A DNA stretch of 64,000 nt from Gemmatimonadota bacterium (lineage in GTDB: Bacteria > Gemmatimonadota > Gemmatimonadetes > Gemmatimonadales > GWC2-71-9). Positions 1-62,772 of the stretch are shown one piece after another; the stretch's first letter is position 1; every line of letters begins with the position of its first letter. The DNA lies in the NCBI GenBank assembly GCA_003222055.1, contig QHUT01000054.1:15022-79021 (forward strand), in the 5' to 3' direction. Below the pieces are notes generated by a model, which worked only from the letters and a program-made list of their open reading frames with translations, searched no databases and had not been told where the DNA came from. A program made the position numbers and the translations under genes.

Positions 1-158
1 TCGATGCGCACTCGCCACCCCTCCTCGCGGGCGGTGCCGAGCAGCAGCGCCACGGCATCGGGGGAGGCGGGCGCGACGCGCGGCACGCCGTCGGGCGTCG
101 CCGCGACCTCGACGGCTTCATCGCCCAGCAGGGCGCGGACGCGATCCAAGAGACTCAT
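1..158 (-). CDS. FAD-binding oxidoreductase, GlcE-like (N-terminal fragment; runs off the window)
   Basis: My own minus-strand translation from ATG 158..156 gives MSLLDRVRALLGDEAVEVAATPDGVPRVAPASPDAVALLLGTAREEGWRVRI. This resembles the N-terminus of a PCMH-type FAD-binding subunit. The ATG overlaps the TGA of the upstream glcD-like gene (ATGA). Confidence 0.45.
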   Translation of the reverse strand, partial: MSLLDRVRALLGDEAVEVAATPDGVPRVAPASPDAVALLLGTAREEGWRVRI

Positions 159-1657
159 CGAGCGGTTGCCTTCCGATCGATTGCGGATTGTGGATTGCGG
201 ATTGCGGATTGAGCCCCAGGGTTCGGCGCTCGCCCCATCCGCAATCCACTCCATTCCCGACACGCGTGCACCGGAACCACCTTCCCCGGGTTCACCCGCT
301 CCTCCGGGTCCCACACGTGGCGCACCGCGCGCATGGCGGCGAGCGAATCGCCGTCGAACAGGAGCGGCATGTAGCGGAGCTTGTCGAGCCCGATGCCGTG
401 CTCTCCCGTGATGGTCCCGCCGGCGGCGATGCACGTGGCCATGATTTCCGCGCTGGCCGCTTCCACCCGCTCGCGCAGGCCCGGCGTGCGGCCGTCGAAC
501 GAAATGTTGGGGTGCAGGTTGCCGTCGCCCGCGTGGAACACATTGCTGACCGTGAGCCCGTACTCGGCGGCGATCCGGGCGATCGTTTCCAGCACGTCGG
601 GGAGCGTGGAGCGGGGAACGACGGCGTCCTGGACCACCAGGTCGCGCGACAGCCGGCCCATGGCGCCGAAGGCTTTCTTGCGGCCGAGCCACAGCTTCTC
701 GCGCTGTTGCGCGTCCGCGGCCACGAGCACCGACCGCGCCCCGTGCGCGCGCAGCACGGCTTGGATCGTCTCGGCGTCCGCCGCGACCGCCGCCTCGTGC
801 GCGCCGTCGAGCTCGGCGAGCAGCACCGCCGCGGCATCGCGCGGGTAACCGGCCGCGTACACCGAGTCCTCCACTGCCTGGATGCACGACTGATCCATCA
901 TCTCGAGCGCGGCGGGCACGATCCCGCTGGCGATCACGGCGGACACGGCCTCACCGGCGGTACGCAATGAGGTGAAGTCGGCGAGCAAGGTGCGAACCGC
1001 CCGCGCGACGGGCAACAGCCGCACGGTGATGCGCGTCGCCACGCCGAAGTTGCCCTCCGAGCCGACGAACAGGCCGACCAGGTCGGGGCCCCACGGCTCG
1101 CCGCCGGGGCTGCCCAGCTCTACGACGCGTCCGTCCGCCAGCGCCACTTCCAGCGCGAGCACATGTGTCGCCGTCACCCCGTACTTGAGGCAGTGCGGGC
1201 CGCCCGCGTTTTCGGCCACGTTGCCGCCGATCGTACACGCGGTCTGACTCGAGGGATCGGGCGTATACTGCAGTCCGTGCGGTGCGGCGGCGACGGAGAG
1301 ACGGACGTTGACGACGCCGGGCTCGACCACGGCCAGCCTGTTGCGGGCGTCGATCTTGAGGATGCGGTTCAGCCGGGTCAGCACGATCAGCACCGCGTCG
1401 CCGTCGGCCAGCGCGCCCCCCGAGAGGCCGGTGCCCGCGCCACGTGGCACGAACGGCATGCCGAGCGCGCCGAGCAGCCGCACGACCGCGATCACCTCGT
1501 CCCGACTCCCCGGGAGCACGACCACGCCGGGCACGCGCCGGTGCGTGGGCAGCCCGTCCTTCGCGTACGTCACGCGCTCCGGCAGCGCCGTCCGCACGTG
1601 GCGCGGTCCGACGATCTCGGCGAGGGTGTCGACTAACGGCGCGAGGTCCCGTGCCAT
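155..1657 (-). CDS. glcD: FAD-linked oxidase, glycolate oxidase subunit GlcD / D-lactate dehydrogenase family
   Basis: Track ORF 155..1753. The likely start is ATG 1657 (MARDLAPLVDTLAEIVGPRHV). Motifs include VVLPGSRDEVIAVVRL, PRGAGTGLSGGA and C-terminal NPGKVVPVHACREWSG, which aligns with the E. coli GlcD tail. The last ~27 codons are encoded by repeat element A1. Confidence 0.85.
   Translation of the reverse strand: MARDLAPLVDTLAEIVGPRHVRTALPERVTYAKDGLPTHRRVPGVVVLPGSRDEVIAVVRLLGALGMPFVPRGAGTGLSGGALADGDAVLIVLTRLNRILKIDARNRLAVVEPGVVNVRLSVAAAPHGLQYTPDPSSQTACTIGGNVAENAGGPHCLKYGVTATHVLALEVALADGRVVELGSPGGEPWGPDLVGLFVGSEGNFGVATRITVRLLPVARAVRTLLADFTSLRTAGEAVSAVIASGIVPAALEMMDQSCIQAVEDSVYAAGYPRDAAAVLLAELDGAHEAAVAADAETIQAVLRAHGARSVLVAADAQQREKLWLGRKKAFGAMGRLSRDLVVQDAVVPRSTLPDVLETIARIAAEYGLTVSNVFHAGDGNLHPNISFDGRTPGLRERVEAASAEIMATCIAAGGTITGEHGIGLDKLRYMPLLFDGDSLAAMRAVRHVWDPEERVNPGKVVPVHACREWSGLRMGRAPNPGAQSAIRNPQSAIDRKATAR
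179..249. repeat. Heptamer-array palindromic element, family A (GCGGATT/AATCCGC), copy A1, one arm degenerate
   Basis: GATTGCGGATTGTGGATTGCGGATTGCGGATTG at 179..211, with partner CATCCGCAATCCAC at 236..249. It is translated as the GlcD-like C-terminus. Confidence 0.9.
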
Positions 1658-1674
1658 GGGTAAATAGTATACCG

Positions 1675-1790
1675 GCAGACGCCCAGACGCCGAGACGCCC
1701 AGCGGTGCGTAGCAGAGAGGGGCCAGGAATCCGTCTTCCTGGCCCCTTATCACGACATCCCGCTAGGCGTCTGAGCGTCTCGGCGTCTGC
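1675..1790. repeat. Composite palindrome: 30-nt arms of NNGCGTCT/AGACGCNN octamers around an inner 11-bp hairpin
   Basis: GCAGACGCCCAGACGCCGAGACGCCCAGCG (1675..1704) against CGCTAGGCGTCTGAGCGTCTCGGCGTCTGC (1761..1790), 26 of 30 complementary. The inner hairpin is GGGGCCAGGAA-TCCGTC-TTCCTGGCCCC at 1719..1746. Confidence 0.9.
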
Positions 1791-1791
1791 T

Positions 1792-2685
1792 CTATGCCGC
1801 TCTCCAGAACCCCCTGAGGGCCCGTCCGTCCGGCGACTCCCGCAGCTTCTCGAACGCGCGCTCTCGTATCTGTCTGATGCGCTCCCGCGTCACACCCATC
1901 AGCGCCCCGATCTTCTCGAGGGTCATGGCCTCGCTGCCCTCTTCGAGGCCGTAATAGAGATAGAGAATCTTGCGCTCGCGGGGCGTCAAGTACTTCTGGA
2001 AGATGCGGTCGATGAACTCGCGCATCAGCTTGCCGTCGGTCTTCTCCTCGATCTCGCCGCCTTCCTGGCCGGCGAAGCGCTCGCCCAGAGTAGCCGCGTC
2101 CTTGTCGCTCCGGTCCACCGGAGCGTCGAGCGACAGCTCCGCCGCCGTCATGCGACGCGCGGTGCGGACGTTCTCGACGGTGTCCTGGAGCGCCATCGCG
2201 ATCTCGTCGTCGGTCGGCTCGCGCCCGAGCTCCTGGGACAGATAGGTCTCGGTGCGGCTCATGCGGATCAGCTGCGAGTTCTGATTCAGCGGAATGCGCA
2301 CGCTGCGGGTCTGCTCGGCGAGTGCCTTCAACACCGCCTGCCGCACCCACCACACCGCATACGAGATGAACTTCACGCCTTGATCCGGATCGAATTTCTT
2401 GACCGCCTTGAGGAGCCCTTCGTTCCCGATCGCCACCAGCTCGGACAGGTCGAGACCGTGACCCTGATATTTCTTGACGTAGGAAATGACGAAGCGGAGG
2501 TTGGCGGTGACGAGCCGCTCGGCGGCTTTTTCATCGCCCCGCTGCACCCGTCGCGCGAGTCTGCGTTCTTCAGCGGGCTCTTTGATGAGGGGGAGCTTCT
2601 GAATGTCCTGCAGGTACTGGTCGAAGGCGCCGGAAGGATTGGCACGAAAAAACGCCTTGGCCTTGCCTCCGTTGGATCGCTCCAT
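1792..2685 (-). CDS. RNA polymerase sigma factor, sigma-70 family (RpoD/SigA-like short form, 297 aa)
   Basis: Region 2 is visible as RFVISYVKKY and FISYAVWWVRQAVLKAL. Region 4 is visible as LTPRERKILYLYYGL and MTLEKIGALMGVTRERIRQIRERAFEKLR. Confidence 0.9.
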   Translation of the reverse strand: MERSNGGKAKAFFRANPSGAFDQYLQDIQKLPLIKEPAEERRLARRVQRGDEKAAERLVTANLRFVISYVKKYQGHGLDLSELVAIGNEGLLKAVKKFDPDQGVKFISYAVWWVRQAVLKALAEQTRSVRIPLNQNSQLIRMSRTETYLSQELGREPTDDEIAMALQDTVENVRTARRMTAAELSLDAPVDRSDKDAATLGERFAGQEGGEIEEKTDGKLMREFIDRIFQKYLTPRERKILYLYYGLEEGSEAMTLEKIGALMGVTRERIRQIRERAFEKLRESPDGRALRGFWRAA

Positions 2686-2962: not shown

Positions 2963-4066
2963 CTACCGCCCTGCCAGCACCTCGCGCACCACCCGCTCCG
3001 GTGCGGTCATCGTCCAGCTGCTGCCGTCGGCGTGCATGCGCCCCACCGCCTCCGGTAGCGCGAACCGCACCGTTCCGGCGCGTGCCTTCTTGTCGAGCTG
3101 CATCGTGGCGAGCAGGGCGTCCGCGGGCGCGCTCTTGGGGAGCTCGACCGGGAGACCGTAGCGCTCCAGCAGCTTGCGAATCCGATCGGCGGTTCCCGCT
3201 GCGGCGATCCCGAGCACCTCGGCGAGCCGCGCTTCGTACGCCATGCCGATCGCCACGGCCGCTCCGTGCAGCACGGCGAACTTGACGGTAGCCTCGACCG
3301 CGTGCGCCACGGTGTGACCGAAGTTGAGGATGGCGCGACGACCGGTCTCACGCTCGTCCGCGGCGACCACGCCCGCCTTGATTTCCACGGAGCGCCGCAC
3401 CAGCTGCTCGAGGGCGTCGGGTTGCCCGGTCGTCACGGCGTCGTGCTCGCGCTCCAGGAATGCGAAGTAGTCGGCGTCGGCGATCGCGGCGTGCTTGACC
3501 GCTTCGGCGACCCCCGCGGCGAGCTGCGGCGCCGGCAGGGTGCCGAGCAGGCCCAGGTCGGCCAGGACGAGCCGGGGTTGGTGAAAGGCACCCAGCAGGT
3601 TCTTGCCGGCGGGGACGTCGACACCCGTCTTGCCGCCGATCGACGAGTCGATCATCGCGAGCAGCGTCGTCGGTACCTGCACGTAGGGAACGCCCCGCAG
3701 GTAGGTGGCCGCGACGAACCCCGCCACGTCGCCCACGACGCCGCCGCCCAGCGCGATGACCCCGCAGTCGCGACCGAACTGACGCTGGAGCAGCCGATCC
3801 GAGAGGGACGCCCACGTTTCCCGCGTCTTGTTCGCTTCCCCTGCGGGAAACTCGAACAACTCCGCGTGCAACGTGGCGTCGTGGCATCGTGCCACGAGCT
3901 TCTTGCCGTACAGCGTCGCGACGTGCGAGTCGGTGATCACGGCGTAGCGGGCCGCGGGGCACGGGGCGTTCACCAAGGCGGGCAGATCCGCCAGCAGGCC
4001 GCGGCCGATCAGGATGTCGTACGAGGTGTTGCGCGGCTCTGCGATCGCGACGCGGATCGTCACCAC
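2963..4066 (-). CDS. aroB: 3-dehydroquinate synthase
   Basis: Contains GGGVVGDVAGFVAATYLRGVPYVQVPTTLLAMIDSSIGGKTGVD. The Arg-rich N-terminus of track ORF 2963..4213 overlaps the upstream gene and looks out of frame. The likely start is GTG 4066 or 4063 (GTGA overlap with the upstream stop). Confidence 0.85.
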   Translation of the reverse strand: MVTIRVAIAEPRNTSYDILIGRGLLADLPALVNAPCPAARYAVITDSHVATLYGKKLVARCHDATLHAELFEFPAGEANKTRETWASLSDRLLQRQFGRDCGVIALGGGVVGDVAGFVAATYLRGVPYVQVPTTLLAMIDSSIGGKTGVDVPAGKNLLGAFHQPRLVLADLGLLGTLPAPQLAAGVAEAVKHAAIADADYFAFLEREHDAVTTGQPDALEQLVRRSVEIKAGVVAADERETGRRAILNFGHTVAHAVEATVKFAVLHGAAVAIGMAYEARLAEVLGIAAAGTADRIRKLLERYGLPVELPKSAPADALLATMQLDKKARAGTVRFALPEAVGRMHADGSSWTMTAPERVVREVLAGR

Positions 4067-30040: not shown

Positions 30041-30810
30041 CACGGGCTCCGGGCCACGACGACGTCCACCACGGTGCCGGGGGCGGCCAGCGTACCCGCC
30101 GCCGGCCGCTGCGCGATCACGGTGCCCGGCGTCGCTTCGCCCGAGCGGCGCCGCGTCACGGTACCCAGCGCGAGCCCCTCCTGCTCCAGACGGGTGCGAG
30201 CATCCGCCTGCGACAGGCCGAGCAGGCCCGGCACCGCGATGGTCGGGGCGCCCCGGCTCACCACCACCGTCACCGGCGCCCCCGGGGCCAGGAGCGTCGT
30301 GGCGGCCGGCCGGGTGAGCATCGTCACGCCGGGGGCCGCCGCGGCCTGCACCGACTCCACCTGCGCCACGGTGAGCCCGGCCGCGACGATCAGCTGCTGC
30401 GCCAGCGGTCCATCCAGGCCGGCCACGTGCGGTACCGGAATCTTGGGGGGACCGTCGCTCGACACCAGGGTCACCCGCAGCCCCGCCGGCGCGCTCACGC
30501 CGGCAGGCGGGTCCTGCCAAATGATGCTGCCCTGTGGGGCGCTGGGGTGCGACTCTGAGCCGCCGTCCTGCACCTGCAGCCCCGCCTTGCGGAGCGCGGC
30601 CGAGGCCTCCTGCAGCGACAGACCCAGCACGCGTGGTACGACATCGTGTCCGTGCAGGATGGGGGCGGGAAAGAGAACGAGGTACGCCGTCAGATACCCT
30701 ATCACGATGGCTCCGACGAGGGCGAGTCCCCAACGTCGCGCCCCGGACAGGTCGCCGAAGGCGGGCAGCTTCCATTCCTGCAGCGGCGGGACGTGACGGC
30801 GGAGCTGCAT
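30040..30810 (-). CDS. Membrane-anchored PASTA-domain protein (three PASTA-like repeats, no kinase or PBP domain)
   Basis: One TM segment (WGLALVGAIVIGYLTAYLVLF), then three repeats ~65-70 aa long of the type VPxVxGLsxxxAxxxLxxaGL...V. Confidence 0.7.
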   Translation of the reverse strand: MQLRRHVPPLQEWKLPAFGDLSGARRWGLALVGAIVIGYLTAYLVLFPAPILHGHDVVPRVLGLSLQEASAALRKAGLQVQDGGSESHPSAPQGSIIWQDPPAGVSAPAGLRVTLVSSDGPPKIPVPHVAGLDGPLAQQLIVAAGLTVAQVESVQAAAAPGVTMLTRPAATTLLAPGAPVTVVVSRGAPTIAVPGLLGLSQADARTRLEQEGLALGTVTRRRSGEATPGTVIAQRPAAGTLAAPGTVVDVVVARSP

Positions 30811-32060
30811 CAGCGCGTCCGCGCGAAGCGCGCCGCGTATGCACCGTCGATTCCGTCGCGCTGTGGCAGGGACTGCAGGTCGCCGTCCGGAGTGAGCAGG
30901 GCAGCCGGCACCGCGGCCGGCACGGGCGCGCGCCCGAACTCAGGGTGGCAGGCGAGGAACTCGGTCACGATGTCGTCGTTCTCCTCCGGCTCGAGCGAGC
31001 AGGTACTGTAGACGAGCAGTCCTCCCGCACCGACGAGCGTTGCGGCGGCCGCGAGCAGCGCCCGCTGCCGCCGGGCGGCGTGTACGATCGTGCGCGGCGT
31101 GATCCGCCAGCGGGCGTCCGGATGCCGGGCCATGGTGCCGGTAGCGGAGCACGGGGCGTCCACCAACACGGCGGATGCGGTTCCCGGCGCGAGCGGTGCC
31201 GACAGAAGATCGGCGACCGTCACCCGGATCGCCACTCCCGCCCGTCGCGTCGTCTCGGCCAGCCGGCGCATGCGCTCCGGCCGGGCGTCCCCCGCCACGA
31301 CTCGAGCGCCGCCCCGCTCCAGCATCACGGCCTTGCCGCCCGGCGCGGCACAGGCGTCGTACACGAGCGCTCCCGGGGGGATCGCGGCGTAGCGGCAGAC
31401 GAGGGCGTGGGCGGGGTCCTGGACGATAAAGCCGCCTTCCGAATACCCCGGCAACTGCACGGGAAACGGGAAACGGGAAACGTGGTCGAGGCGTGACACC
31501 CGCAGGCCGGCTCCATGGGGCGCTTCTTCTACACCAAACCCGACCTTCCGGAGCTCGAGCGCGAGCACATCGGCGGACCAACGGGCAGGCTGAAGCGTGA
31601 GATTCGGCTTCGTGTCATTCCAGGCGACCAGCCGGGTTGTGTCGGTCGCCCCAAAGAGGCGCCGCCAGCGCTCGACGAGCCACGACGGGTGCGTGTTCTC
31701 GCCCGTTTCCCGTTTCCGGTTTCCCGTTTCCCGAGCGAGCCTTCGCAGCGCCTGGTTCACATACCTCGCTGCCGCGTCGCCCGCCGCTTCCCGCGCCAGC
31801 TCCACGCTGGTGGCGACCGCCGCGTAGGCCGGCACGCGGGCCAATGCGGCCAGCTGGTAGGCGCCAAGACGGAGGACATCGTGCAGGCGCGGGTCGGCGT
31901 GGCGCAGCCGCAGCCGGCGGTCGAGATCCGCTCGCCCCCGCAGCACGCCGGCGGCGAGCTCATAGGCGAGCCGGCGGTCCCGCCCGGCGAGCGTGGGAAG
32001 CACCCGGTCCCGCGCCGCCTGGAACGTGCCGCCGGAGCGCACCGCCTGGAGGATGTGCAA
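30810..32060 (-). CDS. rsmB: 16S rRNA (cytosine967-C5)-methyltransferase
   Basis: HPSWLVERW, FIVQDPAHALV, DACAAPGGK, DAPCSATGT and YSTCSLEPEEN. It contains two in-frame heptamer arrays (see repeats). Confidence 0.9.
   Translation of the reverse strand: MHILQAVRSGGTFQAARDRVLPTLAGRDRRLAYELAAGVLRGRADLDRRLRLRHADPRLHDVLRLGAYQLAALARVPAYAAVATSVELAREAAGDAAARYVNQALRRLARETGNRKRETGENTHPSWLVERWRRLFGATDTTRLVAWNDTKPNLTLQPARWSADVLALELRKVGFGVEEAPHGAGLRVSRLDHVSRFPFPVQLPGYSEGGFIVQDPAHALVCRYAAIPPGALVYDACAAPGGKAVMLERGGARVVAGDARPERMRRLAETTRRAGVAIRVTVADLLSAPLAPGTASAVLVDAPCSATGTMARHPDARWRITPRTIVHAARRQRALLAAAATLVGAGGLLVYSTCSLEPEENDDIVTEFLACHPEFGRAPVPAAVPAALLTPDGDLQSLPQRDGIDGAYAARFARTR
31459..31482. repeat. (GGGAAAC)x3 heptamer array inside rsmB
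   Basis: ACGGGAAACGGGAAACGGGAAACG. It is translated on the minus strand as SRFPFP. Confidence 0.9.
31702..31733. repeat. (CCCGTTT)x4 heptamer array inside rsmB, inverted partner of 31459..31482
   Basis: CCCGTTTCCCGTTTCCGGTTTCCCGTTTCCCG. It is translated on the minus strand as RETGNRKRETG. Confidence 0.9.
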
Positions 32061-35202: not shown

Positions 35203-35534
35203 TGGGGCTTGGCTTCGATCGACCGGTTGAGGATGTTGGCGATGTTGGTGCGCATCACGACGACGCGCGACTCGCCGCTCTTCACGGTCACTTCGTCGTC
35301 CTTCAGATGCACCACTTCGCCGATGATGCCGCCCGAGGTCACGACTTTGTCGCCGCGCTGCAGCGAGGCGAGCAGCTGGCGGTGGCGCTCCTGCTGCTTG
35401 CGCTGGGGTCGGATGAGCATGACGTAGAAGATCGCGATCAGCGCGGCGATCTGGACCAGGAAAATGGTGAGCCCGCCCGAAGCGTTCTGGCCCGAGGGGG
35501 CGAACAGCAGCGCCAGCATGGGGTGCGCGGTCAT
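35199..35534 (-). CDS. yajC: Preprotein translocase subunit YajC
   Basis: IFLVQIAALIAIFYVMLIRPQRKQQERHRQLLASLQRGDKVVTSGGIIGEV. ATGA overlap with the tgt stop. Confidence 0.88.
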   Translation of the reverse strand: MTAHPMLALLFAPSGQNASGGLTIFLVQIAALIAIFYVMLIRPQRKQQERHRQLLASLQRGDKVVTSGGIIGEVVHLKDDEVTVKSGESRVVVMRTNIANILNRSIEAKPQ

Positions 35535-36727
35535 GCGGATCCCGATCGCAGGTAGCGGCGGCGCCAGGCATCGGCCCACGGGCCGAAGGCGTTCCGCCGG
35601 ATCGCGGCCCGCATGTCCTGCGCGAGCCGGATCAGGTAGCGGACGTTGTGCAGCGACAACAGTCTCAGGCCCAGCAGCTCTTCCGCTACGAACAGGTGCC
35701 GGAGGTACCCCCGCGAGAACGTGGTGCACGCCTCGCAGTCGCACGAGTCGTCGAGCGGCCGCGGGTCCTCGCGGTGCTCGGCGTTGCGAATGTTCACGGG
35801 GCCGTCGGGCGTGAAGGCCGAGCCGTTTCGCCCGTTGCGCGTCGGCGCCACGCAGTCGAACAGATCCAGCCCGCGCTCCACCGCCGCCACCAGGTCCTCG
35901 GGAAACCCCACGCCCATAAGATAACGCGGCAGGGCGGGGGGGAGCCGCGGCTCGAGCGCGTCGAGCATCGCGTACATCGCCGCCTTGGGCTCGCCGACCG
36001 AGAGGCCGCCGATCGCGAGACCGGTCCAGTCGCGCATGTCGCAGATCCGGCGCAGTCCTTCCTCCCGCAGCGCGAGATGGACGCCGCCCTGGAGAATGGG
36101 CCACAAGGTCTGGTTGCACGACGCTACGACGCCACGTTGCAAGGAGTGCCCGGCGTCAGTCGTGGAACGTGGCGTCGTAGCGTCGTGTGACGCTTTCAGT
36201 TCCTCATGCCGCTTCCGGCACCGCTCCAACCATCTCAGCGTTCGCTCGAGGGCGTCCCTGGCCGCGCTCTCGTCCGCGCCCCCGGGGACCACGTGGTCGA
36301 ACGCCATCGCGACGTCGGCGCCCAGGGTCCACTGGATCTCCGTGGCGCGCTCGGGCGTGAGCCGGCGACGGCCGCCGTCCACGTGGCTCTGGAACTCGAC
36401 GCCGTCGTCGTCCACGCGCCGGAAGCCCTCGAGCGAGAATACCTGGAAGCCGCCCGAGTCCGTGAGCAGCGGTCGATCCCAGCCCATGAAGCGGTGCAGC
36501 GCGCCGAGCGTCGCCACCACCTCCTCGCCCGGGCGCACGTGCAGGTGATAGGTGTTCGCGAGCACGAGCGTCGCGCCCGCGGCGCGGAGGTCGTTGGGCG
36601 AAAGCGCCCGCACGGTGCCTTGAGTCCCGACCGGCATGAAGACCGGCGTTTCGACGCTACCGTGCGGGAGGGTGAGGGTGCCGGCGCGGGCGGGGCCGGA
36701 GGTCGCGTCGACCTTGAACTCGAACAC
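35531..36727 (-). CDS. tgt: Queuine tRNA-ribosyltransferase (tRNA-guanine transglycosylase)
   Basis: The start GTG 36727 gives (M)FEFKVDATSGPARAGTL, which aligns with E. coli MKFELDTTDGRARRGRL. Also LTDSGGFQVFSL, GLAIGGLSVGE and CDCEAC. The ~25-aa loop HDATTPRSTTDAGHSLQRGVVAS is encoded by palindrome B1. The track ORF N-terminus (to 36811) runs through repeat A2 and is rejected. Confidence 0.92.
   Translation of the reverse strand: MFEFKVDATSGPARAGTLTLPHGSVETPVFMPVGTQGTVRALSPNDLRAAGATLVLANTYHLHVRPGEEVVATLGALHRFMGWDRPLLTDSGGFQVFSLEGFRRVDDDGVEFQSHVDGGRRRLTPERATEIQWTLGADVAMAFDHVVPGGADESAARDALERTLRWLERCRKRHEELKASHDATTPRSTTDAGHSLQRGVVASCNQTLWPILQGGVHLALREEGLRRICDMRDWTGLAIGGLSVGEPKAAMYAMLDALEPRLPPALPRYLMGVGFPEDLVAAVERGLDLFDCVAPTRNGRNGSAFTPDGPVNIRNAEHREDPRPLDDSCDCEACTTFSRGYLRHLFVAEELLGLRLLSLHNVRYLIRLAQDMRAAIRRNAFGPWADAWRRRYLRSGSA
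36117..36187. repeat. Octamer-array palindromic element, family B (CACGACGC/GCGTCGTG), copy B1, inside tgt
   Basis: Perfect 22-bp inverted repeat: CACGACGCTACGACGCCACGTT (36117..36138) and AACGTGGCGTCGTAGCGTCGTG (36166..36187), with a 27-nt loop. Confidence 0.95.
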
Positions 36728-36734
36728 GGGCGTT

Positions 36735-36812
36735 ATTGCGGATTGCGGATTTCGGATTGCGGATTCGAAAGTCGGGCGTCCAATCCGCAATCCACAATCC
36801 GCAATCCGCAAT
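36735..36812. repeat. Heptamer-array palindromic element, family A, copy A2
   Basis: Left arm ATTGCGGATTGCGGATTTCGGATTGCGGATT (36735..36765). Loop CGAAAGTCGGGCGTCC. Right arm AATCCGCAATCCACAATCCGCAATCCGCAAT (36782..36812). 29 of 31 positions are complementary. It fills the queA-tgt gap. Confidence 0.95.
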
Positions 36813-37864
36813 CAGAGTACCGCCATTGCATCCCCATACGAGTAAAACCGGTATCCCTCCCTTACCGCTTCCCCGTACGCCCGCATGACGTTGTCATAGC
36901 CCCCGAACGCGCACACCAACATTAGCAGGGTCGAGCGCGGCAGGTGGAAGTTCGTGAGCAGCCGGTCGACCGCGCGGAACGAGTACGGGGGGTGAATGAA
37001 GAGCCGGGTCTCGCCGGCGCCCGGAGCGATGCGGCCGCGCTCGCCGGCAAGCGTTTCGAGCGTGCGCACGACCGTGGTCCCGACCGCCCAGACGCGACCT
37101 CCCGCTTCCCGTCGCTCGTTGATGATCCCGGCCGCGCTGTCGCTCACCCGGTACGGCTCGTCGTGCATCGCATGGCGCGCGAGGTCGTCGGTCTCGACCG
37201 GCTTGAAGGTGCCGGGGCCGACGTGCAGGTCCACTTCCGCGAGCGCCACGCCCTTGTCGCGCAGCCGGTCCAACAGGTCGCGCGTGAAATGCAATCCGGC
37301 CGTGGGAGCGGCGACGCTGCCGTCGTGTGCCGCGTACACCGTCTGGTAGCGCTCGCGATCCTCGGGGCGCGGCGCGCGGCGGATGTAGGGCGGCAGTGGC
37401 ACCTCGCCGTACTTGGCGAGCGTGGCCGGGGCGTCGAGCGCGCCGACGAACCGCACCCGGCGGAGGCCGCCTCCCAACGCCTCGACGATCTCCGCGGTGC
37501 TGTCGGGGCCGAACGTCACGCGGCGTCCCGACTTGAGCTTGCCTCCGGGATGCCCCATGGCGAGCCAGGTCCCATCGGGTAGCTCCCGGACGAGCAAGAG
37601 TTCGGCCTTGCCGCCGGACCCGCCCATCCCGCTTCCCGCAAGCCGCATCCCGTGCAGTCTCGCCGGAATCACGCGTGACACGTTGACGACGAGCACGTCC
37701 TCCGGCGCCACCAGATCGACGACGTCGACGAACCGCCCGTGGCGGATCGCCCCGCTGGCGCGATCGAGCACCAGGAGGCGACTCCCGCCCCGATCGGGGA
37801 GCGGGTCTTGGGCGATCTGCTCGGCTGGCAGACTGTAGTCGAAGTCTGAAGTTCGGTAGAGCAC
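36812..37864 (-). CDS. queA: S-adenosylmethionine:tRNA ribosyltransferase-isomerase
   Basis: The start GTG 37864 gives (M)LYRTSDFDYSLPAEQIAQDPL, which aligns with E. coli MRVTDFSFELPESLIAHYP. Also TRVIPARL-like VSRVIPARL, AAPTAGLHFT and FRFYSYGDAM. The track ORF N-terminus runs through repeat A3. Confidence 0.92.
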   Translation of the reverse strand: MLYRTSDFDYSLPAEQIAQDPLPDRGGSRLLVLDRASGAIRHGRFVDVVDLVAPEDVLVVNVSRVIPARLHGMRLAGSGMGGSGGKAELLLVRELPDGTWLAMGHPGGKLKSGRRVTFGPDSTAEIVEALGGGLRRVRFVGALDAPATLAKYGEVPLPPYIRRAPRPEDRERYQTVYAAHDGSVAAPTAGLHFTRDLLDRLRDKGVALAEVDLHVGPGTFKPVETDDLARHAMHDEPYRVSDSAAGIINERREAGGRVWAVGTTVVRTLETLAGERGRIAPGAGETRLFIHPPYSFRAVDRLLTNFHLPRSTLLMLVCAFGGYDNVMRAYGEAVREGYRFYSYGDAMAVL

Positions 37865-37870
37865 GCCGAG

Positions 37871-37952
37871 AATTGCGGATGGCGGATTTCGGATTGCGGA
37901 TTCGAAGGTCGTGGGTCCAATCCGCAATCCGCACTCCACAATCCGCAATCCG
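37871..37952. repeat. Heptamer-array palindromic element, family A, copy A3
   Basis: AATTGCGGATGGCGGATTTCGGATTGCGGATT, loop CGAAGGTCGTGGGTCC, then AATCCGCAATCCGCACTCCACAATCCGCAATCCG. It fills the ruvB-queA gap. Confidence 0.95.
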
Positions 37953-41930: not shown

Positions 41931-41943
41931 GACGGCCCCTCCT

Positions 41944-41989
41944 GTGCGTCTGTGCGTCTGTGCGTCTAGCCTACTATAGATGTAGACGC
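41944..41989. repeat. (GTGCGTCT)x3 octamer array ending in a 7-bp hairpin
   Basis: GTGCGTCTGTGCGTCTGTGCGTCT at 41944..41967. GCGTCTA (41962..41968) pairs with TAGACGC (41983..41989). The GCGTCT core is the same as in element 1675..1790. Confidence 0.85.
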
Positions 41990-57252: not shown

Positions 57253-57259
57253 AGCGTTA

Positions 57260-57330
57260 CACGACGCCACGACGCCACGACGCCACGTTGCGAGAGCCTC
57301 TTTCGTGGAACGTGGCGTCCTGCCGTCATG
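57260..57330. repeat. Octamer-array palindromic element, family B, copy B2 (between convergent genes)
   Basis: (CACGACGC)x3 + CACGTT at 57260..57289, with partner AACGTGGCGTCCTGCCGTCATG at 57309..57330 (19 of 22 complementary). The loop starts GCGAG and ends TCGTGG, like B1. Confidence 0.9.
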
Positions 57331-57982
57331 CAACGCTCTCTCGGTGCTTATCCCCCCACCACGCCCACGCCACAAACAGCCACCCGAAGATGATACCGCC
57401 GATGGCGAGCGCGACGCGCGTCGTCGGCGGTGGCGGACTGAACAGCGAGCCGACGTACGACAGCAGCAGCACCGCGACGAGCGCCCAGAATCCGTAGCTC
57501 CCCGCGCGGTCGCGGGCTCGCGTGGCGGTGGCGTAGAGCCAGACGCCCGCGACGAACATCACTCCCTCGACGACCACCGTGCCGGCGACGGAGTTCCAGA
57601 GACCGAGCCCCAGCGGCGTGCCGCCCGGGTACAGCGGCATGTCGGGGCGATGGGTGACGTAGTCGAGCACCCAGTGGCTCACGACGAGGAGCGCGATCAC
57701 GACCCCTCCGCGGTCGTCCAGCGTGCGCGCGCGGTACACCAACCCGAACAGCGCGCCCCATCCGATCAGGGTGACGAGGCTGTGCGAGATCGGGATCGAG
57801 TCGAGCCACAGCGTCAGGAACGGATTCGGCCCCGGCACGACGTGGGCCTGCTCCCAGCCGAGCAGCAGGAACACCGGCCACAGCAGATCGGCGAGCGACG
57901 TGGCGGCGAACAGCGTGCCCAGCGAGGCTCGCGGCGCGGCACGCTTCGCGGCCAGGGCGACGGCGTAGTGGCCGATGAACAT
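57326..57982 (-). CDS. Integral membrane protein (putative membrane-bound metal-dependent hydrolase-like)
   Basis: MFIGHYAVALAAK... with about six hydrophobic segments and conserved His residues. The family is uncertain. The last codons lie in repeat B2. Confidence 0.5.
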   Translation of the reverse strand: MFIGHYAVALAAKRAAPRASLGTLFAATSLADLLWPVFLLLGWEQAHVVPGPNPFLTLWLDSIPISHSLVTLIGWGALFGLVYRARTLDDRGGVVIALLVVSHWVLDYVTHRPDMPLYPGGTPLGLGLWNSVAGTVVVEGVMFVAGVWLYATATRARDRAGSYGFWALVAVLLLSYVGSLFSPPPPTTRVALAIGGIIFGWLFVAWAWWGDKHRESVA

Positions 57983-61477: not shown

Positions 61478-61564
61478 GAGGGGCTAGGGGTCGGGGGCTA
61501 GGGGCTGGGGACTGCGCTGCCATCCCGAATCCCTGACCCCTGACCCCTGATCCCTGACCCCTGA
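61478..61564. repeat. G-tract / C-tract heptamer palindrome (GGGGCTA-type arm against CCCTGAC-type arm)
   Basis: GGGGCTAGGGGTCGGGGGCTAGGGGCTGGGG at 61480..61510 and CCCTGACCCCTGACCCCTGATCCCTGACCCCTGA at 61531..61564. The right arm ends at the ATG of the amidohydrolase gene. Confidence 0.9.
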
Positions 61565-62772
61565 TGTTGCGCATCCGCGCAGGGTCCGTGCACCCCGTCA
61601 CGGCGCCGCCCATCACGGACGGCGCCGTTCTCGTTGCGGACGATGGCCGGATCGCGGCGGTCGCGGCGCATGCGCAATTGCCCGACCCTCCAGGATCCCG
61701 CCGGGTCGAGTTTCCCGACGCCGTCCTCGTCCCGGGCCTCGTCAACACGCACACCCACCTCGAGCTCACCCATCTCGCCGGTCGCAATCCGGAGCGCGAG
61801 TTCTCCCGCTGGATCCGCACCATCCGGGCGCTGAAGGACGCGACCACGCCCGAAGAGTTCGATCACTCGGCCGAGCAGGGCGTGCGGGACTGCTGGACGG
61901 CGGGCGTCACCTGCGTCGCGGACACGGGAAGTACCGGAGCGCCCCTCAGGGCGCTCGCCCGCCTCGGCGCGCGCGGGATCTATTATCAGGAGGTATTCGG
62001 CCCCGATCCGGCGGACCGGGCGGTGAGCCTGGCCGACCTGCAGGCCGCCGTGGTCCGGCTCGGTCCCGTCGCCTCCGCCCGCGCACGGCTCGGCGTGTCG
62101 CCGCACGCGCCGTACACCGTGAGCGAGCCGCTCTATCGCGCGGTCGCCGATTTTGCACGGCGCGAAACGCTCCCCGTCGCGATGCACCTGGCCGAGTCGC
62201 GCGATGAGACGGCGCTGGTACGCGACGGGGCGGGCTCGTTCGCCCAGGCGCTGCGCGCGCGCGGTATCCCCGTGCAAGCGCACCACTGCTCGCCGGTGCA
62301 GTATCTCCTGCAACTTGGCGTCTTAGAACATGCAACGGGGTGGCTCTTCATCCACTGCGTTCAAGTGGACGCACGGGACATCGCGATTCTGCGGGACTCG
62401 GGTGGGGCGGTGGCCGCCTGCCCCCGTTCCAACCGCGCCCACGGGCACGGCACGGCGCCCCTGGCTGCATTCCGGGCCGCCGGCATCCCGGTCGGGCTCG
62501 GCACCGACTCGGTGGTCAGCGCGGGCGATGTCAACCTGTGGGCCGAGGCGGCGGCCGCCGGACTGCACGGGGAGGACGCGATCCGCATGCTCACGATCGA
62601 GGGAGCGCGGGCGCTCGGGCTCGACGGCGAGATCGGCTCGCTCGAGGTCGGGAAGCAGGCCGACCTCGCGGTTTTTCCCTCTGCCGCCCTCGCCCGCCCT
62701 TTGCCGCCATCTGCCGCCCTTCTCACCCTCGTCGCCGGACGGGTCGTTCGCGGCTACATTCCCGCCCCATGA
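61564..62772 (+). CDS. Amidohydrolase-family protein (chlorohydrolase/deaminase-like)
   Basis: VLVPGLVNTHTHLELT (HxH metal site), MHLAES and GLGTDS. The C-terminal part contains tandem decamers. Confidence 0.8.
   Translation: MLRIRAGSVHPVTAPPITDGAVLVADDGRIAAVAAHAQLPDPPGSRRVEFPDAVLVPGLVNTHTHLELTHLAGRNPEREFSRWIRTIRALKDATTPEEFDHSAEQGVRDCWTAGVTCVADTGSTGAPLRALARLGARGIYYQEVFGPDPADRAVSLADLQAAVVRLGPVASARARLGVSPHAPYTVSEPLYRAVADFARRETLPVAMHLAESRDETALVRDGAGSFAQALRARGIPVQAHHCSPVQYLLQLGVLEHATGWLFIHCVQVDARDIAILRDSGGAVAACPRSNRAHGHGTAPLAAFRAAGIPVGLGTDSVVSAGDVNLWAEAAAAGLHGEDAIRMLTIEGARALGLDGEIGSLEVGKQADLAVFPSAALARPLPPSAALLTLVAGRVVRGYIPAP
62671..62730 (+). repeat. Tandem decamers (CTGCCGCCCT-like, about 5-6 units) in the 3' part of the amidohydrolase CDS
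   Basis: GTTTTTCCCT CTGCCGCCCT CGCCCGCCCT TTGCCGCCAT CTGCCGCCCT TCTCACCCTC, read in register from 62671. No inverted partner was seen. Confidence 0.75.

Follow-up and report, generated by a model that had tools for sequence, protein, structure and literature searches.

The intervening sequence in the 23S rRNA of Coxiella burnetii has been described as a selfish element with a 28-bp terminal stem, an open reading frame (ORF) for the protein S23p and tandem heptamers whose number varies among strains; RNase III cuts the stem at the first repeat, and intervening sequences without an ORF are also known (PMC4990558). In Xanthomonas, arrays of the heptamer GGGAATC often form convergent pairs between co-directional ORFs and have been read as quadruplex formers (Rehm et al. 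2015, PMC4692102). The short tandemly repeated repetitive (STRR) sequences of cyanobacteria and the TAACTGA arrays of Beggiatoaceae are almost all direct, with 1 inverted case in 170 sets, and lie just upstream of start codons (PMC4679880). Here we describe a 116-nt composite hairpin with arms made of tandem octamers, located between a sigma factor gene and glcD at positions 1675-1790 of a 64,000-nt stretch of DNA (termed the window) from a soil bacterium of the Gemmatimonadales (Gemmatimonadota; contig QHUT01000054.1, positions 15,022 to 79,021). Related loci and metagenome contigs that were compared with the window are designated by L-numbers (e.g. L028, L144, L208). In the literature, we found no description of repeat-armed palindromes in Gemmatimonadota.

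We favor a two-layer explanation, to which we assign a probability of about 60%: a terminator of the sigma gene would lie inside the arms of a palindrome family dispersed in the Gemmatimonadales, and glcDEF would be expressed from a leaderless mRNA.

Structure of the element

The sigma gene and glcD are both encoded on the minus strand, and the sense order is sigma stop codon, 1 nt, element, 17 nt, glcD ATG. A previous description made from the DNA letters (the sequence-only reading) had reported two arms, a 56-nt spacer and, within it, a perfect 11-bp hairpin at 1719-1746; all of these are present where it had placed them. The features of the locus are as follows.

1792..2685, minus strand: sigma-70 family gene, RpoD/RpoS-like, 297 aa, stop codon TAG at 1792-1794
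1760..1790, minus strand: 5' arm, sigma side, GC-AGACGCCG-AGACGCTC-AGACGCCT-AGCGG, in register with the arms that flank PF05635 genes
1747..1759, minus strand: 5' spacer, weakly conserved (identity of 0.54 among orthologs)
1718..1747, minus strand: inner hairpin with a 12-bp stem and a 6-nt loop, putative intrinsic terminator of the sigma gene
1711..1718, minus strand: U-rich tail UCUCUGCU, adjoining the inner hairpin on its 3' side
1675..1705, minus strand: 3' arm, glcD side, CCGCT-GGGCGTCT-CGGCGTCT-GGGCGTCT-GC, overlying the -35 region of the predicted glcD promoter
155..1657, minus strand: glcD, 500 aa, first gene of glcDEF with glcE next, ATG at 1657-1655

On the forward strand, the arm at 1675-1705 reads AGACGCCC/AGACGCCG/AGACGCCC followed by AGCGG, and the arm at 1760-1790 reads CCGCT followed by inverted GGCGTCT units. 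The arms differ from perfect complementarity by four mismatches, every one of which falls at the NN positions of the AGACGCNN octamers. Between them, the inner hairpin is perfect, formed by GGGGCCAGGAA (1719-1729) and TTCCTGGCCCC (1736-1746) around a 6-nt loop; an extra A-T pair extends it to 1718-1747, and it is the longest perfect hairpin of the window. The window copy holds no ORF between its arms.

The pattern of three tandem AGACGCNN units has 3 matches in the window, compared with 0.02 expected. The sense RNA of the whole element has a predicted folding energy of -92.6 kcal/mol (shuffles, -52.8 ± 4.2; z = -9.6), and the value for single-stranded DNA is -50.5 kcal/mol (z = -9.6). An identical element is present on 2 metagenome contigs. 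A search of the whole window against Rfam gave nothing at the gathering score and no rRNA match. At relaxed scores, the matches at the element were plant and animal microRNA precursors, which reflect merely a long hairpin and were discarded.

Conservation and covariation

Contigs with the orthologous locus were collected through their glcD homologs and yielded 8 further distinct regions downstream of the sigma gene, so that 9 sequences were aligned including the window. In all 8 regions, we found AGACG(C/G)NN arms, a central GGGGYCAGGA...TCCTGRYCCC hairpin and, confined to the sense side, a T-rich tail. The outer helix comprises 27 pairs, with 90% of the alignment cells paired and 11 pairs altered on both sides, e.g. 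AGACGCC/GGCGTCT in some sequences, AGACGCAC/GTGCGTCT or AGACGGG/CCCGTCT in others. The inner helix is present in 9 of 9 sequences and comprises 13 pairs, with 95% of the cells paired and 3 compensatory pairs. None of 500 shuffles equalled the observed pairing and covariation, and pairing fell to 37-47% when the 3' partners were slid along the alignment.

The inner stems have a mean pairwise identity of 0.84 and the arms one of 0.74-0.76, compared with 0.67 for third codon positions of the sigma gene (positions 1 and 2 of which are 98-99% identical among 9 relatives); the values for spacers and loop are 0.54 and 0.41, respectively. Because stems and arms covary and are more conserved than the third positions of the sigma gene, both the inner and the outer helix are maintained, and this compensatory evolution makes it clear that what is preserved is the hairpin as such.

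The inner hairpin and probable termination of the sigma gene

The inner hairpin (-25.5 kcal/mol, z = -4.6) begins 45 nt past the sigma stop codon. The sequence-only reading had noted no U-tract on either strand and had therefore set the structure apart from canonical intrinsic terminators. This was too strong, since the sense-strand tail UCUCUGCU contains 4 U out of 8, roughly threefold over background (this genome of 71% G+C has about 15% T), and the orthologs carry 4 to 6 T out of 8 (TCTCTGCT, TCTTTGCT, TGTTTGCT, TGTTTCTT, TCTGTGCT, TTTTTCCT, and TTTGTGTT), with a canonical tail at locus L208 (TTTTTCCT; UUUUUCCU). The window hairpin is better described as a putative intrinsic terminator, somewhat degenerate, whose tails are canonical in relatives. 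The clade uses standard signals elsewhere, as seen for a tRNA operon (L028, L029, and L100) with a TTGACA-17-TAAGAT promoter and U-tract terminators.

Conservation with covariation, a position just past the stop codon and a U-rich tail on one side only mark the inner hairpin as, most likely, the sigma gene's Rho-independent terminator. On the plus strand there is no T-rich tail (3 of 8) and no upstream A-tract, so the element is not a bidirectional terminator. Of the proposal that the whole structure acts as a terminator or insulator, what stands is the inner hairpin, with its conservation, covariation and U-rich tail; the arms, as described below, are part of a dispersed palindrome family.

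A family of repeat-armed palindromes

In the window, we detected 17 tandem arrays with units of 7-10 nt, 8 of which have an inverted partner, compared with 2.2 and 0, respectively, in 30 dinucleotide shuffles. They include the following elements.

179..250, minus strand: GATTGCG arms in the 3' part of the glcD ORF, a tail that is not conserved
31459-31482 and 31702-31733: inverted arrays of ACGGGAA and its complement (AAACGGG/TTCCCGT heptamers) within rsmB
36117..36187, minus strand: CACGACGC octamer arms, in frame within tgt
36735..36813, minus strand: GATTGCG heptamer arms in the queA-tgt spacer
37872..37952, minus strand: GATTGCG heptamer arms between ruvB and queA, a copy homologous to the element at 36735
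41942..41967, minus strand: single arm of three AGACGCAC units without inverted partner, just upstream of an AGGAGG ribosome-binding site
57253..57337, plus strand: CACGACGC arms directly past the stop codon of an aminotransferase/kynureninase-like gene
61479..61564, plus strand: AGGGGCT/CCCTGAC heptamer arms, filling the spacer that separates a PBP1A-type from an amidohydrolase gene

In a survey of 80 loci from related genomes, such tandem-armed hairpins were frequent in Gemmatimonadota and almost lacking in Bacteroidota, with a density of 36 elements per 0.98 Mb of GC-rich loci. About 40 unrelated repeat units occur in the class and share no motif, which rules out a single sequence-specific binder for the class. 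Another idea, that the units supply stop codons in all frames, is true for units of the TAGACGC type and was rejected as a general rule, as it does not hold for the units of the window. Two elements share their repeat unit in 39% of the pairs within a locus or genome, vs 3.4% between genomes, a ten-fold difference. For the 67 elements that could be oriented, the flanking genes were co-directional in 49 cases, convergent in 17 and divergent in 1.

The same site often carries different units in different genomes. The site downstream of the sigma gene is occupied by GGCGGTCA, TATCAGC, GACGGAAG or GGGAGAA, and the tRNA Met-Val spacer by GATTGCG, AGACGCC or GCGGAAC. At the glcD tail, the window has GATTGCG and L203 has GAGTGCG (3856-3937), with GlcD proteins that are 93% identical; repeats are also present there in L211, L215, and L217, and none in L204 and L208. 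Conversely, homologous arms recur at the sigma-glcD, ABC2-gidA and other loci and in tRNA spacers, with internal parts conserved only within subfamilies (L120, L147, L150, and L199). The arms of the window element are thus part of a widespread and fast-evolving family of palindromic repeats in soil Gemmatimonadales.

A metagenome scan for three tandem AGACGCNN units returned at least 120 contigs, ranging from 39% to 72% G+C. The matches among the contigs listed were mostly hairpins, several of which (L093, L138, and L156) nest canonical terminators, and one low-GC contig belongs to Chlamydiota. Arms of AAAGACGC/GCGTCTTT are translated into the N-termini of ORFs on low-GC contigs (L103, 356-1261; L197 from Chlamydiota, 548-1228; L192, 14-802), where the product, ...QRRKDAKTQR...ASLRLCVFAL..., resembles a charged-then-hydrophobic signal peptide; such arms probably give rise to spurious or lengthened protein predictions.

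At 41931-41973, the single arm listed above sits between a 123-aa ORF and a 296-aa protein with a DnaB_C domain only; the idea of a split DnaB was dropped, as the upstream 123-aa ORF had no Pfam match. At 62643-62720, near the end of the amidohydrolase ORF, a terminator-like hairpin is followed by GGTTTTTCC and then by 4.4 copies of the 10-mer CCCTCTGCCG.

The architecture and gene context of these elements match the inverted heptamer pairs of Xanthomonas (PMC4692102), which raises the question of whether the repeats are G-quadruplex formers, as proposed there, and the window element at 61479-61564 does have GGGG-containing units. The units AGACGCNN, AGACGCC, GATTGCG and CACGACGC, however, are without G-runs, so that quadruplexes cannot explain the window element or most of the class; we find this explanation hardly credible.

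Elements inside operons and genes

Elements of the class occupy both spacers of the ruvB-queA-tgt operon and also lie inside ORFs. Aligned with solved Tgt structures, the product of tgt (35531-36697, minus strand) shows a break at query residues 169-194 vs chain residues 191-194, and about 22 residues are inserted exactly at the CACGACGC hairpin. In rsmB (30810-32060, minus strand; 16S rRNA methyltransferase RsmB), the two arrays are about 220 nt apart and both in frame; they are translated as RETGNRKRETGEN and RFPFPV and flank a conserved segment of the protein. The last 30 or so codons of glcD consist of a repeat-armed hairpin, and the ORF still closes in an ATGA overlap with glcE. In the tRNA operon Ala-Gly-Met-Val-Arg-Pro (L028, L029, and L100), the spacers range from 16 nt without an element to about 98 nt with a repeat-armed hairpin, and the unit family differs by genome; the Met-Val spacer of L029 holds a minimal hairpin with AGACGCCGAGAC arms of 1.5 units. 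As hairpins of the same class lie within the tRNA operon, within the ruvB-queA-tgt operon and in frame within ORFs, the arms are not terminators in themselves.

These observations bear on the possibility that the whole 116-nt palindrome is a single extended terminator or insulator, possibly bidirectional, for which the arms would be needed. Its position 1 nt past the stop codon, its extreme stability, the near lack of the class in divergent intergenic regions (1 of 67) and the canonical terminators nested in L093, L138, and L156 would be in line with such a role. However, the polymerase meets the inner hairpin and its U-rich tail before the 3' arm is made; the signals of a bidirectional terminator are lacking (no upstream A-tract, and 3 T out of 8 on the plus strand); and arm-only elements are found in the tRNA operon, in operon spacers and in ORFs, where termination would be lethal to expression. 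We consider an extended terminator improbable.

PF05635 genes between the arms

At L144, AGACGCC arms enclose a 125-aa gene of family PF05635 (E = 8e-29), which comprises S23p, the four-helix-bundle protein of 23S rRNA intervening sequences; their junctions, AGACGCCTAGCGG ... CCGCTAGGCGTCT, are those of the window element. An orthologous PF05635 gene lies within AGACG(C/G)NN arms at the ABC2-S23p-gidA locus of other Gemmatimonadales (L219, L229, and L238), with compensatory AGACGG/CCGTCT variants. The window arms align in register with these PF05635-flanking arms, including the TAGCGG/CCGCT junction.

In L147, the PF05635 gene enclosed by CTAAGGNG octamer arms is truncated, and this element is a deletion derivative of a PF05635-bearing one. 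In L219, the S23p gene is separated from the 5' arm by a U-tract terminator, so that the loss of S23p from an element of this type would yield the architecture of the window copy. No PF05635 homolog was found anywhere in the window. From these comparisons, we read the window element as an ORF-less relative of PF05635-bearing intervening sequences, resembling a MITE (miniature inverted-repeat transposable element). As a separate observation, in the S23p-carrying elements L219 and L229 (600-700), where a U-tract terminator follows the 5' arm, the S23p gene appears leaderless (in L229, TATCTT and 7 nt precede the ATG).

Palindromes of this kind might instead be a neutral by-product of mutation, in which slippage of a short direct repeat within a hairpin stem, followed by template switching that copies it as a mirror image into the opposite arm, would grow palindromes around terminators already in place, with neither mobility nor function. 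Dozens of unrelated repeat units, unequal and variable copy numbers (e.g. 4 vs 11 in L011), the 1.5-unit "proto-element" in the Met-Val spacer of L029 and the presence of different units at the same site in different genomes would be expected from such a process, and units of 7-8 nt would escape mismatch repair. A process of this type fits poorly with arms that are more conserved than synonymous sites and have many compensatory changes, with homologous arms (including the non-repeat junctions and the order of variant units) that recur at non-orthologous loci and around the PF05635 gene, or with units that are ten times more often common within a genome than between genomes. A mutational origin thus explains the diversity of units and the proto-element of L029, but neither the homologous arms at unrelated loci nor the conservation above the synonymous level, and we grant it a small though appreciable chance.

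Putative leaderless promoter of glcD

The start of glcD has no Shine-Dalgarno sequence, and the following feature lies between the element and the ATG.

1664..1671, minus strand: -10-like box TATACT, 8 nt before the glcD ATG (or TACTAT, 6 nt before it), of a predicted leaderless promoter

The TATACT box is conserved in L203, L208, L210, L215, and L216. In at least 9 genes of the window, a TAnnnT sequence is found 5-8 nt ahead of the ATG, often with a TTGCCA-like -35 box; this spacing is the signature of leaderless mRNAs. Among these genes, two divergent pairs (49599/49629 and 59247/59316) have TAnnnT 6-8 nt before both ATGs together with TTGCCA/TGGCAA-like -35 boxes. These pairs look like back-to-back leaderless promoters, and leaderless mRNAs appear to be common in this organism.

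Because glcD has a conserved -10 box at the leaderless distance and no Shine-Dalgarno sequence, it appears to have its own leaderless promoter, and the sigma gene and glcD appear to be separate transcription units. A composite terminator or insulator that includes the arms, as put forward in the sequence-only reading, is not supported in that form.

In relatives (L204-L216, at about 1812-2504), a gene with a LON_substr_bdg domain (MARDLPIF...) is located between the sigma gene and glcD, and the TATACT box serves that gene. The window and L203 are without the LON gene, and their glcD begins with MARDLA, the N-terminus of the LON gene (1640-1657 in the window). A deletion appears to have joined the first codons and the predicted leaderless promoter of the LON gene to glcD.

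The 3' arm spans about -12 to -45 of the putative glcD promoter, single arms are located just upstream of the DnaB_C gene and of tRNA-Ser genes, and an AGACGC core recurs across phyla, including Chlamydiota, all of which would suit octamer arrays that serve as sites for a DNA- or RNA-binding regulator of glcDEF or of the sigma gene. Orthologs, however, swap the unit (AGACGCC, AGACGCAC, or AGACGGG) and keep the pairing rather than the sequence; a period of 8 bp places successive sites on different faces of the helix; and a single genome holds many unrelated units, with elements also within ORFs. Regulator binding is a very improbable account of the arrays.

On the other side of the sigma gene, the approximately 270 nt upstream (2686-2960) are unusually AT-rich and contain a promoter-like TTTGCA-18-TATATT together with GTGGAGAG/TGTGGAAAA repeats. 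In relatives, this region contains a called ORF of 55-56 aa on the opposite strand.

Discussion

According to the two-layer explanation, most sigma transcripts would end at about 1711-1718, at the inner hairpin and its U-rich tail. The arms, with three tandem AGACGCNN octamers and a TAGCGG/CCGCT junction, represent the inverted ends of a dispersed family of palindromic elements, in which full-length relatives carry a PF05635 gene between such arms and the window copy has just the terminator there. The present data show the structure, its covariation and conservation, the family to which it belongs and the PF05635 cargo of relatives, and from them termination, the leaderless start, cleavage by RNase III and mobility are inferred. 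The complementarity of the arms would be kept either by selection or by homogenization on a folded single strand. In read-through RNA, the two arms would pair into a helix of about 27 bp with interruptions, and RNase III may cleave this outer helix, by analogy with rRNA intervening sequences, and so part the sigma RNA from the glcDEF RNA. Transcription of glcDEF would be separate and give a leaderless mRNA, driven by a -10 box located 6-8 nt ahead of the ATG.

Several observations weigh against this explanation. Concerning termination and the promoter, a consensus terminator scan (at least 5 U out of 8) did not call the inner hairpin, with its tail of 4 U out of 8 in the window; glcD has no recognizable -35 box, that position being occupied by the 3' arm, and a consensus promoter scan called no glcD promoter. 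At the RNA level, the in-frame copy in tgt indicates that the stem is tolerated in an mRNA, so that cleavage by RNase III cannot be obligatory. Strand asymmetry (G-U vs A-C, and sense vs antisense stability) was used to weigh a role at the RNA level against one at the DNA level. The sense strand of the window element and its orthologs is favored by 1-10 kcal/mol; class-wide, its advantage over the antisense strand is not significant (32 of 49, p = 0.16), which does not demonstrate a role at the RNA level. Concerning mobility, no target-site duplication, sharp ends or transposase were found, an autonomous transposase-encoding relative not having been searched for; the one cargo seen, PF05635, is not a known transposase. 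Filled and empty tRNA spacers have no shared flanks, the glcD tail has no defined ends either, and the CTAG ends of the window element are themselves palindromic. Copies with homologous arms differ in their center, which is unusual for copy-and-paste elements, and the sampled S23p genes are orthologs of one locus rather than many dispersed copies.

We tentatively suggest a broader link, which we regard as possible rather than probable: a single type of mobile element may underlie both repeat-armed palindromes and classical 23S intervening sequences, and in it a PF05635 (S23p/Avd-like) gene within inverted arrays of tandem 7-8-nt units would spawn ORF-less derivatives on terminators, in tRNA and operon spacers and in frame within genes. 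Such elements would spread within genomes and across phyla (Gemmatimonadota, Chlamydiota, and Xanthomonas-type arrays) without a transposase, possibly by a hairpin-templated and possibly by an S23p-dependent route.

Where rRNA intervening sequences and the very large PF05635 family come from, how they move and what they do have been standing questions since the 1990s, and the meaning of the over-represented heptamer arrays of Xanthomonas and cyanobacteria is likewise a standing question. The locus described here ties all three together in one lineage, where the same arms surround a PF05635 gene, a decayed PF05635 gene, a bare terminator, or nothing. It provides a concrete system for asking about RNase III processing in mRNAs and tRNA precursors, about the binding of S23p to the arms and about the mode of spread. 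In practical terms, the elements lengthen ORFs and put peptides into conserved enzymes, and they probably seed spurious ORFs and break metagenome assemblies.

Comparison with known systems

None of the closest known systems unites many unit families, mirrored and covarying tandem arms, nested terminators, in-frame insertions and PF05635 cargo outside rRNA, and each of them shares a part of these features. The inner hairpin resembles a Rho-independent terminator in its GC-rich stem near the stop codon, its U-rich tail and its conservation with covariation. Its stem of 12 bp and loop of 6 nt lie within the limits used for such terminators (at least 5 bp and 3-8 nt). It differs in its degenerate tail (UCUCUGCU) and in being nested within a second helix of 27 bp that is alien to canonical termination.

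Among repeat families, the Xanthomonas arrays likewise form nearby inverted pairs of tandem arrays, mostly between co-directional ORFs near stop codons, with variable copy number. They are built on one G-rich 7-nt unit, in contrast to the many unrelated units of 7-8 nt found here, most of them non-quadruplex and that of the window element 8 nt long; the covariation of the hairpins, the nested terminators and the PF05635 cargo also set our elements apart. The STRR and TAACTGA repeats are similar as abundant intergenic tandem heptamers that are patchy over phyla, but an inverted partner is rare there, whereas the arms are mirrored here. Repetitive extragenic palindromic (REP) sequences, with the bacterial interspersed mosaic elements (BIMEs) and REP doublets (REPINs) that they form, are also genome-specific intergenic palindromes at 3' ends and within operons, with a two-armed hairpin as the unit. 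REP arms, however, are small imperfect palindromes of 20-40 nt with a GTAG-type head that are mobilized by a REP-associated tyrosine transposase (RAYT), and the arms here are tandem direct octamers; no RAYT was seen, without a genome-wide search for one.

Like MITEs and Rickettsia palindromic elements (RPE), the elements described here are short, do not code for protein and have terminal inverted repeats, and they look like deletion derivatives of a longer, gene-bearing element (L147). The in-frame insertions into tgt, rsmB, and glcD are a further likeness to RPE. In contrast to both, no target-site duplication or transposase partner was found and the internal sequence is not conserved among copies.

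The 23S rRNA intervening sequences of Coxiella burnetii and Leptospira (PMC4990558) differ from our elements in their rRNA location, as the latter occupy intergenic, tRNA-spacer and intragenic sites, with an ORF-less copy in the window; here, moreover, the tandem repeats are mirrored in both arms, and cleavage by RNase III is proposed by analogy only. They resemble each other in a stem of inverted repeats of about 28 bp (27 pairs in the window element, against a lower limit of 20 bp for such stems) with tandem heptamers or octamers of variable number in the arm, in the PF05635 cargo of full-length relatives, and in the occurrence of short ORF-less forms and of ORF decay.

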